This document shows, in pieces, positions 3,840-7,373 of a stretch of DNA of 64,000 bases. The position numbers and the translations under genes are program-made. The DNA comes from an uncultured Chlamydiae bacterium (GTDB taxonomy: Bacteria; Chlamydiota; Chlamydiia; Chlamydiales; JAJFMA01). The notes beneath the pieces are model-generated. The model searched no databases and had not been told where the DNA came from. It was given only the letters and a program-made list of their open reading frames with translations. The stretch spans positions 896,001 through 960,000 of the forward strand of contig CAVQMM010000001.1 in assembly GCA_963713615.1 (NCBI GenBank), read 5' to 3'. Each line of letters starts with the position of its first letter. Position 1 is the first letter of the stretch.

Positions 3840-4082
3840 AAGCCCTCACAATCGTATATCGGCGCGCAGCGCTTTGGAGCCCCAAAAGTAATAAGGCCTC
3901 CTATGTGGCGCAGTCATTCCATGCATAGAGTGTTGCCTCACAATCGTTACTCGGCGCGCAGCGCTTTAGTAGGTAAGGGGCAGGGTTTCCCCAGCCCCTC
4001 CCTGTTATCGCAATAGGGTCAATTCCCTATATTTACCGGTATGCATCTTTCTCGCACCGGGCGATGCCCCACTGGTTGCCTA

Positions 4083-4900
4083 TTAGGGAACACAACCGAC
4101 ATTCATCCTCTTTCGACACAACTGAATACAACTCAGTATTCCAAGGCGGCGTAGATGCTTCAATTTCAACCGCAGGTTGTCACGCTTGCTGATACGTTTG
4201 TATTTCATGCAGCGCAAGCGTTTCCTGAGCCAACAGTCAGTGGTTACAAAGAACTTTTTGACTGCTGCTAACGGATGACTGAAGTAATTCACCGTCCCAC
4301 GCACTACTTGGTTTAGTTTCTCAACGGCCTTAGCATCTAAGTTCCGACTTCGGATCGTACAATTCCGTACTGCATCGCGCAATTTCTCCTTGGACTTTTC
4401 TCTTATGGTGATATGTCTGGAGGTAAAATGAAAACCTAGGAAGTCAAAGCCCTCTGAAGCATGACAAATCTTCGTCTTCTCGGGGCTTAACTCCAAAGAC
4501 ATCTCATCTTCCAGTATTCTCCTGGATAAGTCTAGGGCCTCCTTTGCCTGCATTTCAGTTCGACACAGAATAACAAAATCATCCGCATAGCGAACGAATT
4601 TGTAGCCATGACGTTCCAATTCGTGATCAAGGCGATTAAGAACAATATTGGCAAGCAGAGGAGAGATGACACCTCCCTGCGGCGTACCTTTTATGGTTGG
4701 CCGTAATTGTCCTTCCTCCATCACGCCAGACTTAAGAAATCGTTCGATGAGTTGTAGAATGTTACCATCAGCGATTTCGGAGGCTACTTCTGCCATCATC
4801 AGTTTGTGTGGAATGTTATCAAAGAAACCCTTGATATCGGCATCCACAACATATTTGTAACCCTGTGAAAGATATTCTTTCACCAGAGAGACAGTCTTGG
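4083..4900 (-). pseudogene. ltrA: Group II intron reverse transcriptase/maturase, N-terminally truncated, no endonuclease domain
   Basis: VVDADIKGFFDNI, GTPQGGVISPLLANI, RYADDF, GFDFLGF and X domain (LNQVVRGTVNYF); RT0-2 absent. Confidence 0.9.
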
Positions 4901-5214
4901 GTAGCCAACACGTAGCAGCCTTCCACAACTCGTAACAGCAATACCTTAAGTGACCTATGCATGACCAACATGTTGCAATTTCCAGTGCTTGATTGCCAAA
5001 CATTGTAGTCATTTGCACCAAAATTGCACCAAAAAAAAGAAAGCCCAGGAGGCCACGTCAAAAAAGATAAGGACTAGGTGTAAGAGAAAATTTAAAAGAA
5101 GCCGGATGCCATCAGGGTCGTTTTGGATACTGAAAAGATGTATACAAAAATTAGCATCACTTTTCATTGATTTTCTATCCCAACTTATCTAAAATAATGG
5201 AAAACGGAGACCTG

Positions 5215-5448
5215 ATGACATACAAGCCCATGGATCCGAAGATATTTAAAAAATACCTAAGACTATTGGGTTGGTCGATTCGCAAGTCTCGTGTTGATTG
5301 GTCTGTATACGATGAAAATGGAGACTTCGTATGTTCCATAATAATTTCTCATGGAAACACCAAGTCTGAAGTAGTTGCTCACAGCGTCCACAAGGTAAAG
5401 ACAAAAGTTATTGAAAAGGGGAAAACATGGCCGCCAACAAAGAGTTAG
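5215..5448 (+). CDS. Putative HicA-like toxin
   Basis: Small basic protein with K.L..LGW and a His-containing ISHG strand; RBS ggaga; overlaps next ORF. Confidence 0.5.
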   Translation: MTYKPMDPKIFKKYLRLLGWSIRKSRVDWSVYDENGDFVCSIIISHGNTKSEVVAHSVHKVKTKVIEKGKTWPPTKS

Positions 5449-5834
5449 CCGAACACTTGGCTTTGGCCCTAGGAGAGGTTGGGGAAATACAGCCATGGTA
5501 TGATCGCAAATTCAAGGCTTGGGTATTCTCTCATAAGCTTTACCCAAACGTAGAATATGCCGGTCAATCCAAGCAGGAGGTCATCGAAAGATATCCTCTC
5601 TATTTAAAAGAATTTATTTATCATCGCCTAAACGACACTTTAAGCCCTTTATCCGAACGCGGAACCCGTGGCAAAGGGGGTTACCGAATTGGGGCCGGTC
5701 GCCCGAAAGGTTCAACGACAGAGCCCAAAAAACGAGTCTATCTTCCCGCTGAACTTGCAGACTGGATTTCTGAGTATTCTCACTTGGAGATGGTTCGTAA
5801 AATGATGCTTAAAGATAAATCCAAAGCATCTTGA
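5427..5834 (+). CDS. Putative HicB-like antitoxin with C-terminal DNA-binding segment
   Basis: YPNVEYAGQSKQEVIE resembles HicB N-domain; GGYRIGAGRPKG followed by RVYLP (RHH-like). Confidence 0.5.
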   Translation: MAANKELAEHLALALGEVGEIQPWYDRKFKAWVFSHKLYPNVEYAGQSKQEVIERYPLYLKEFIYHRLNDTLSPLSERGTRGKGGYRIGAGRPKGSTTEPKKRVYLPAELADWISEYSHLEMVRKMMLKDKSKAS

Positions 5835-5899
5835 TGAATACCGCCAAAATTATCGCCTGTAAGCCTCAGCCAGGGTATAAGGTGTGGATTCGCTTTGAT

Positions 5900-6110
5900 G
5901 ATGGTTAGGCTAGACAATAGATAACGTCGGTGTCCCTTGGGTGTACGCTCAACCTGGATTTTGCCAGCAGCCTCCCAACGACGGAGTGTAGCCTCGTGTA
6001 CGCCAAGTTCCTGAGCTGCTTTCTTGATACTCACCTTCATGCGCTAAAATCTATGCAATTTGCATAGAGTTGTCAAGAAATATATAGATTTTTGGCAGCT
6101 GCTGCCAACC
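5900..6110 (-). mobile_element. IS607-family remnant (left end plus MerR-type HTH of TnpA)
   Basis: MKVSIKKAAQELGVHEATLRRWEAAGKIQVERTPKGHRRY at 6040 downward; serine recombinase domain missing; boundaries approximate. Confidence 0.7.
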
Positions 6111-6160
6111 CTATAATTGACGCTACCGTCCTTCCGTTGCCTTGCTTCTATGATAGCCAT
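6107..6160 (-). pseudogene. N-terminal remnant of a tyrosine integrase
   Basis: RBS ggagg then MAIIEARQRKDGSVNYR, a typical integrase arm-binding N-terminus, cut by the IS607 remnant. Confidence 0.55.
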
Positions 6161-6506
6161 GTTGTTGGTCCTCCAATTTGTGTTGAGCCTGTCAGCAGTC
6201 CGCGAAAGCCTACCATCACAGGCAAAAAAATACCACATCAGATTAGCATTCTGATGTGGCTTAGTTCGTAAAAGTCGTTTGTATCGACACTTAGATGTAA
6301 TTCGTTGGGTGGATAAACCCGATTTGGTGCACTTTTGGTGCAGTACAGAAAACAATTGGCACTTTTGAGGATCGATCAAGTGTTGTCTTGTGTTGGGAGC
6401 AAGTGCACCAAAATTGCACCATTTTCGGGACAGCACAAAGTGCAGTCCGATGGGACGTGTCAGGCGATAGGCTTGTGGATGTAGTGTCAGAGGGAAAGGG
6501 AAAGAG

Positions 6507-6562
6507 TGGGGGTGGTTGGAGTCGAACCAACGTAGACCGAAGTCGTCAGATTTACAGCCTGA
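6507..6562 (-). tRNA. 3' fragment of tRNA-Tyr(GTA), att-like and not a complete tRNA
   Basis: tcagg-ctgtaaa-tctga anticodon arm, long variable arm gacttcggtc, T arm gttggttcgactccaac, acceptor 3' strand; no D arm or 5' strand. Confidence 0.8.
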
Positions 6563-7373
6563 TGACAGTTTCTGCCAGCGCCCCTATAGCACATGCTGTC
6601 TATTTGCTACGGGAAAGTCTTGCGACTCCAGCGCTTCGGCTCACTCCAGTGCTTGGCGCGCTAACGTCGGCTGAAACGTGACCCCCCCCATGGTAACGCT
6701 ACCTGACACCTTAACAGCCACACTTACGCATGGTCCTGTCTGCCTCCTCTTTCGAGGCTGGTAACGTCTTCTGCACGGGAAACAGTCCCGCACAGGTAGG
6801 CTTTGGTTGTATTTTACTGCATAAATTACTACCTCATCCGTTTGTGACTTAGTTCTAACATACCCGCGACTCGCGCGGAGTGCGGTCGCTTGCGACCGCT
6901 TTTCGTTCCTTGCGATGGTCATGTGAAACGGCATCACTATCATTCGCTAAGGGTAAAGGGTTAGTACATGCAGCCTAACCGAATCCATACGATGCCGTTT
7001 AGCACTGCCGTCGCAAGGAACCCAAAGCGGTCGCAAGCGACCGCACTCCAAAGCGCTGCGCGCCGAGATACGATTGTGAGTCAAGAAAAAGATGTGTGCA
7101 ACACTATGCATGGAATGACTGCGCCACATAGGAAATTGCGCCAGCCAACCTTTTGAATTACTTGGAAGAGCGTGTCGCTCGCGACCGCTTTGGATTTGGG
7201 TGGCTAGATATTTTACGATCTTGGCTTTATACCGCTCGCTATAGCATTTTATACCATAATCGGCCTAAAACATCGACTGTGGTATACAACAGATTCGCCC
7301 AAATCCAAAGCGCTGCGCGCCGAGCAACGATTGTGAGGGCCTGAATGACCATCGAAACTAAACAGTAAATACT

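Follow-up and report, generated by a model that had tools for sequence, protein, structure and literature searches.

In the available portion of one review, three target specificities are listed for bacterial group II introns, namely homing sites, terminators and attC sites. Class C introns (B.h.I1, GsI-IIC, IIC-attC) lack an endonuclease domain, carry a CGC triad and recognise intergenic structured targets through exon-binding sites 1 and 3 (EBS1 and EBS3) without an EBS2, with an intron-binding site 1 (IBS1) of 3–4 bp (PMC1702495, in its accessible part). RmInt2 of Sinorhizobium meliloti, a class D intron which is likewise endonuclease-less, homes into the multicopy inverted repeat of ISRm17 (PMC4615759, partial text), and repetitive extragenic palindromes (REPs) serve as abundant extragenic targets of the insertion sequences (IS) ISPpu9, ISPpu10, ISPa11 and IS1397, while two of the nine Pseudomonas putida group II introns listed in the available text of PMC1525189 are located at REPs. 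Here a 64,000-nucleotide window of the 3.97-Mb genome (G000) of an uncultured Chlamydiae bacterium (GCA_963713615.1, contig CAVQMM010000001.1, positions 896,001 to 960,000) is considered, in which a group II intron lies on the minus strand at 3968–6876. It is in all probability a broken copy whose clade is distinct from the reference classes tested, and which was inserted where a REP has its outer end, likely by retrohoming with a short guide adapted to this repeat. The habit of homing into a multicopy repeat without an endonuclease is shared with RmInt2, although the target of the latter is an IS end rather than a REP associated with a REP-associated tyrosine transposase (RAYT), and RmInt2 uses EBS2. 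Similarly, the four insertion sequences share the choice of REPs, but rely on DNA transposases rather than RNA-guided reverse splicing.

The intron begins with GCGCG at 6876 and ends with CCTACT at 3968. An earlier note on this sequence had claimed that excision of 3968–6876 restores the repeat consensus without a duplication, and the joined 25-nt site indeed occurs as 192 exact copies in the host genome. A 17-nt joined site with one mismatch allowed gives 244 matches in this genome, against none for the reversed control, and none in any of the four relatives searched. The junction is unambiguous, because neither does the intron begin with the same base as the 3' exon, nor does it end with the same base as the 5' exon, and the target was not duplicated upon insertion. 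On the intron strand, the 5' exon comprises IBS1 (6877–6882) and a conserved G at position -7 (6883), with the REP hairpin at 6882–6899 (DNA fold of -8.7 kcal/mol, z -3.94), while the 3' exon (3950–3967) is the conserved REP flank known from the repeat copies, beginning with AAAGCGC, of which the +1 A represents IBS3. The sole further copy found in G000, a 267-nt remnant at 2449379–2449645 of contig C1, has the same two junctions as the window copy, with one of the two copies on the leading and the other on the lagging replication strand. This remnant retains both ends and domains V–VI, with approximately 60 nt of a different multicopy repeat in its middle. No empty orthologous site could be shown by synteny in the four relatives, where the homologues of ada and hutI are found on separate contigs and a search for the REP was negative.

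The target repeat consists of a hairpin preceded by GGAG, and 355 sites in the host genome match its end, 350 of which are on C1. Among these 350 sites, 135 inverted pairs with a spacing of 160–189 nt were counted, and the intron occupies the outer GGAG end of one such REPIN of two inverted REPs (6877–7049). Only 23/409 sites fall within open reading frames (ORFs) of at least 150 amino acids, though such ORFs cover 78 % of C1. One of the six Y1 transposase (PF01797) genes in the genome is flanked by these REPs (3+3 copies), and its product has a Y---NP motif that fits the class 2 TnpA-REP proteins, as far as these are described in the accessible text of PMC6006769. On the basis of its high copy number as an extragenic palindrome, the inverted pairs and the copies around the Y1 transposase gene, the target is thus considered a REP/REPIN family with a RAYT-like gene. 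Its terminal tetranucleotide is GGAG and not the usual GTAG (PMC3733652, available part), which we read as a REP variant; GGAG is a word absent from the accessible text of both PMC3733652 and PMC6006769.

Relatives of the intron were gathered by two collection scans (66 and 79 loci, numbered with the prefix L), in which a usable 5' junction was available for 78 loci, giving a non-redundant set of 55 introns. The procedure by which the 5' ends were picked is biased to GYGYG words, and the boundaries are backed by the covariation of EBS1. Across the 55 introns, six consecutive columns of domain I, constituting EBS1, form antiparallel pairs with the exon from position -1 to position -6, and 287/330 of these positions are Watson-Crick pairs. 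With one representative for each of the 28 distinct guides, 133/168 pairs are formed, whereas 20000 shuffles gave 56 on average and never more than 82. The window copy carries the guide GGAGUG (6642–6647, minus strand), which aligns with the EBS1 of L155 and is complementary to its IBS1, CACTCC. A single further column (EBS3) pairs with exon position +1 in 93 % of 46 relatives, position -7 is a G in 48/55 introns with no covarying partner, and no excess of pairing that would point to an EBS2 was observed in any of the five regions tested. The pairing check proposed in the earlier note returned a 6-nt EBS1 and an EBS3 which covary with the target. EBS2a was considered as an explanation for the G at -7 and was rejected, as it concerns position -14 in the available text of PMC8643678. 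The 5' ends read GCGYG in 40/55 and GUGYG in 13/55 of the non-redundant relatives, and the 3' end is CT in 45/46 readable clade introns. The ends GCGCG and CCTACT, which had been correctly reported for the window copy (GCGCG...CU in the RNA), depart from the canonical 5' GUGYG and 3' AY and are read as a variant of the clade. L096, L117, L120 and L157 are head-to-tail or nested copies, in which another intron copy supplies the 5' exon with its 3' end.

The excised intron RNA, together with the reverse transcriptase (RT), would reverse-splice into single-stranded DNA at an 8-nt word made up of the G at -7, IBS1 and IBS3. This word is found at 473 sites on C1, of which 350 belong to REPs and just 35 are both non-REP and outside ORFs, while 23/30 of its sites in the examined stretches of a second genome, G061, are REPs. 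The 8-nt word thus suffices to explain most of the REP preference. As it forms the invariant end of an extragenic repeat with around 350 copies, most of the sites usable by the intron would be harmless REPs.

The same guide is found at eight other loci, all of which are inserted after a hairpin followed by CACTCC, with hairpin stems that differ among them. In a third genome, G163, all eight 5' ends occur at this junction, in a REP variant with 325 sites. Together with the second copy in G000, these loci bear out both the expectation of the earlier note that further copies would share the REP junction and its inference of an endonuclease-less lineage homing to an abundant REP family. A second clade intron in G163 is inserted on the opposite strand of the same REP, before the hairpin (18 5' junctions, and 8/9 of the 3' ends examined). 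The two introns of this genome (L246–L255 and L271–L291) insert 9 nt apart on opposite strands of one REP family, and a third clade member, L292, occurs at a nonamer repeat. All eighteen copies in G061 (L183–L200) are located in another REP family, with one degenerate junction; 125 empty sites of this family are present, some around a broken Y1 transposase gene. Further sublineages occur, by inspection, in tandem repeats of 7- or 9-mers, with 119 sites for one heptamer target in G413, the genome of L027. The heptamer arrays of G413 often occur in inverted pairs approximately 150–270 nt apart, and resemble REPINs built of short tandem repeats. The sublineages would thus have retuned EBS1 and EBS3 to whichever intergenic repeats, REPs or 7- or 9-mer tandem repeats, are abundant in their hosts.

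Two other accounts of this distribution were weighed. The copies may have spread passively, as cargo of RAYT-mobilised REPINs or through recombination between REPs, rather than by retrohoming, which would be in line with the RAYT-like gene flanked by these REPs in the host genome and with the near-identical flanks of many REPs. This is highly improbable, however, given that the two G000 copies reside in differently built repeats, that the near-identical G061 copies have exact intron boundaries with differing distal flanks, and that the guide covaries with the target. It is rather doubtful, although less easily dismissed, that adaptation to repeats was not involved at all, with any 7–8-nt match being taken, genic insertions being purged, and only those lineages surviving that match multicopy intergenic repeats. 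The 7-mer is found 834 times in G061, compared to 125 REP sites, 404/759 of the 7-mer sites on C1 are non-REP, and some members occur at apparently unique sites. Such a process would amount to lineage sorting and would not contradict the pairing mechanism, but guides would have had to match different repeat families independently and more than once, and two introns to match one REP in G163, which amounts to lineage-level selection for repeat targeting. Retrohoming with a guide retuned to the repeats of the host is the reading followed here.

The assignment of the element to group II introns is based on an RT ORF upstream of domain V, a CGC triad with a 2-nt bulge, a bulged A in domain VI and the EBS1–IBS1 pairing. 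Full-length proteins of the clade comprise approximately 410–440 amino acids and have no endonuclease domain. Two full-length relatives score 413 (L089) and 411 bits against TIGR04416 (cut-off 300 bits), and the window fragment 248 bits. The latter is the 3' part of the RT/maturase gene (4083–4890, minus strand; PF00078 and PF08388), with a YADD motif and an X domain and no endonuclease domain. In a quick IQ-TREE search of 81 RT rows, with Shimodaira–Hasegawa-like approximate likelihood ratio test (SH-aLRT) supports and without bootstrap, and from which eleven near-duplicate clade rows, the G061 intron and the reference L223 were excluded, the clade (47 rows) is recovered on a long stem with a support of 100, separate from the class C group (99). 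Among the 20 sparse references, labelled according to the rows of Table_3 in the accessible part of PMC8919778, those of classes B, D, E and F (one each for D, E and F), g1 (two), ML and CL and two unclassified RTs, not assigned to U1–U3, are all placed outside the clade. Classes D, E, F and g1 are IIB-like and lack an endonuclease, as does the clade, but differ in that no EBS2 signal is found in the latter, and the domain V of the class D reference can be detected by Rfam. The planctomycete G2L5 RTs, in turn, are described as lacking intron RNA in the available text of PMC4244168.

The earlier note had framed the intron as class IIC, and the clade does share with class C the absence of an endonuclease domain, the CGC triad, EBS1 and EBS3 without EBS2, and intergenic structured targets. 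The best plasmid matches of its RT are class C proteins (~40 % identity) and the best PDB matches, 7uim and 6ar1, are class C maturases. Furthermore, a strong hairpin ends 4–5 nt before the junction in all loci with the CACTCC guide and in most G061 copies. It could thus be argued that a ribonucleoprotein recognises the REP DNA hairpin itself and needs no more than a short IBS1, in the way of class C introns at terminators and attC sites. We consider this unlikely. The IBS1 of the clade is 6 bp rather than 3–4 bp, its RT falls outside class C in the phylogeny that the note had proposed as a check, and many members have no exon hairpin (L029, L030, L031 and L139, at 0.0 kcal/mol). Insertion after a stem-loop holds for the sublineage of the window copy and not for many other clade members, with the second G163 intron inserted on the opposite strand before the hairpin and L107 inserted within a loop. 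The clade is further distinguished from class C by an extra hairpin in domain V and the lack of any Rfam match. The class IIC framing is not supported; the clade appears to function like an endonuclease-less retrohoming intron, with traits in common with IIC, and is not filed as IIC.

Several observations weigh against a separate clade of repeat-tuned introns. The RT tree contains no reference for classes A, g6 or G2L5, and related sequences inflate the covariation counts of the guide-target statistics. Four of the 55 introns do not pair with the 5' exon, two of these (L096 and L157) following another intron copy and two (L104 and L150) having mismatches, and L091 has a +1 C opposite an EBS3 U. 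The heptamer target is abundant in only one of six genomes searched, with 0–4 sites in the other five, two of which have 2 and 4, and several targets (e.g. those of L029, L100 and L127) were not shown to be repeats. Thirteen of the eighteen G061 copies are on the C-rich strand, compared to 8/24 empty sites, which, if local skew mirrors replication, would run counter to the lagging-template bias of RmInt introns, local skew being a poor marker in this respect. Finally, neither splicing nor homing was observed, and the RNA run X19 provided no informative cover.

No part of a group II intron is better conserved than domain V. At the 3' end of 48 clade sequences it retains an invariant CGC triad, a 5-bp stem, a 2-nt bulge and a GAAAG loop, and is followed by a domain VI with a bulged A at position -7. 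Between the 5-bp stem and the GCG partner of the triad, however, the 3' strand is extended by a 5-nt linker and a 6-bp hairpin, which is closed by a 6-nt loop. In the window copy, domain V extends over 4007–4065 on the minus strand, with the triad at 4063–4061, the linker at 4035–4031 and the extra hairpin at 4013–4030, while domain VI is at 3971–4003 (97.3 % of cells paired across the alignment), with its bulged A at 3974. All cells of the extra hairpin are paired in the 48 sequences and five of its six pairs show compensatory changes. For domains V and VI together 95.2 % of cells are paired, compared to 86.8 % in shuffles (0/500 as high) and 40–50 % in slid controls. The clade alignment and pair counts predict a three-way junction for domain V, in which the triad and bulge keep their normal register and the hairpin is extruded. 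Near-identical multi-copy introns carry this domain V, which would imply that they were recently mobile with it.

The extra hairpin could be neutral or inactivating, or domain V could fold otherwise, and its likeness to the spliceosome would then be superficial. The triad pairs are invariant and thus not themselves proven by covariation, 17/48 sequences leave one pair below the triad open, and the fold of domain V is a prediction from sequence. We nevertheless deem such explanations quite unlikely, since the length, linker and loop of the hairpin are conserved across the clade along with the compensatory changes, covariation is seen in the basal pair of the triad helix (GC in 29 and AU in 19 sequences), and recently multiplied copies carry the hairpin. 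Under the predicted three-way junction, the hairpin leaves the 3' strand at what we take to be the same point as helix II of U2/U6. The U2/U6 core likewise has its catalytic helix broken between the triad helix (helix Ib) and the bulged stem-loop, the U6 internal stem-loop (ISL) (PMC4424553, available text), but the clade domain V is a single RNA chain, closed by the 6-nt loop and carrying a CGC triad. In the accessible part of a review, the break is described as a 'perplexing difference' between the spliceosome and group II introns. The likeness appears to be one of topology, and is likely to reflect convergence.

No group II model of Rfam is found in the window, nor in eight full-length relatives at E-values up to 2, while a control search recovered a group II model in 9/10 loci, the exception being the clade member L292. 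With a domain V/VI model built for the clade, complete members score 109–117 bits and reference introns 16–33 bits, the latter on their domains V/VI, and the clade domain V pattern occurs in 10/401 genomes of the phylum of the host. The survey described in the available part of PMC8919778 requires an Rfam domain V/VI match, and surveys of this kind would miss the entire clade. No description of a domain V with this insertion, or of an intron family homing to REPINs, was found in the full-text literature searched, which excluded subscription papers, figures and most supplements. On balance, we lean towards a class of bacterial group II introns that has yet to be described and escapes Rfam-based surveys, and that lives on the intergenic repeats of its hosts by retuning a 7-base guide. 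In this reading, a three-way junction underlies its active site, with a break in the manner of helix Ib and the U6 ISL, and the clade would offer a living model for the passage between domain V and U2/U6. Homing to REP/REPIN ends with a short retuned guide would add a niche to the three target specificities listed for bacterial introns. A mobile natural ribozyme with such a break would allow the tolerance of the active site to be tested directly, and opening of the extra loop would test for a two-piece, U2/U6-like core, while a 7-base guide without EBS2 represents a simple system for retargeting.

To judge by its sequence, the window copy is a broken and dead relic. The earlier note had read all 2909 nt of 3968–6876 as intron, which does not hold, as 4891–6553 is a foreign island and approximately 750 nt of intron have been deleted. 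Compared to full-length relatives of around 2.0 kb, the window retains intron nt 1–298 (6876–6579), 25 nt from within the RT gene and, starting at 4890, the 3' part, while intron nt ~299 to ~1040–1060, including EBS3, domains II–III and the start of the RT gene, are missing. The 5' piece, which starts with GCGCG and forms part of domain I, shares 67–74 % identity with the 5' regions of seven of the eight closest relatives tested, the one without alignment being L087, of which the 5' end is missing. The domain I segment proposed at 6563–6876 in fact spans 6579–6876 (minus strand); this truncated piece alone folds weakly (z -1.58). The 25-nt piece between the deletion and the island (6554–6578, minus strand) reads GRNCHQA and matches intron nt 1038–1062 of four relatives. 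Contigs of run X1, with 0–4 differences per piece, join 6554 directly to 4890, skipping 1663 nt with a 4-nt overlap, and preserve the REP junctions at both intron ends. One of these matches 6579–6894 with a single difference and diverges from the window past 6579, the deletion point.

The 1663-nt island (4891–6553) opens with a 3' portion of tRNA-Tyr and is 67–92 % similar to DNA adjoining the true tRNA-Tyr gene (C1:18966–19049), and its integration site in the RT gene is tRNA-Tyr-like, with the 4-nt overlap. An element of the tRNA-Tyr type may thus have integrated off-target, into a stretch of the RT gene resembling the anticodon arm, and after insertion the intron copy would have lost the ~750 nt and acquired the island, in either order. 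A tRNA-Tyr predicted by ARAGORN at 6506–6585 was rejected as a gene, its 5' part being intron and RT sequence, and a guess that the other end of the island is represented at C1:92451 was not supported. Two adjacent ORFs in the island (5167–5448 and 5427–5834, encoding 93 and 135 amino acids) could not be named by searches of Pfam, NCBIfam and PHROGs. More distant group II RT remnants are present elsewhere in G000 at C1:2938842–2939483 and 2881892–2882125, with 34 % and 55 % identity to the L089 protein, respectively. A diverged relative of the island follows the true tRNA-Tyr gene (C1:18966–20403), and motifs resembling GCACCAAAA are repeated near both ends of the island. The island furthermore contains the left end of an IS607-family element (5905–6112), which is cut off after 208 nt and is identical to seven other copies in the genome.

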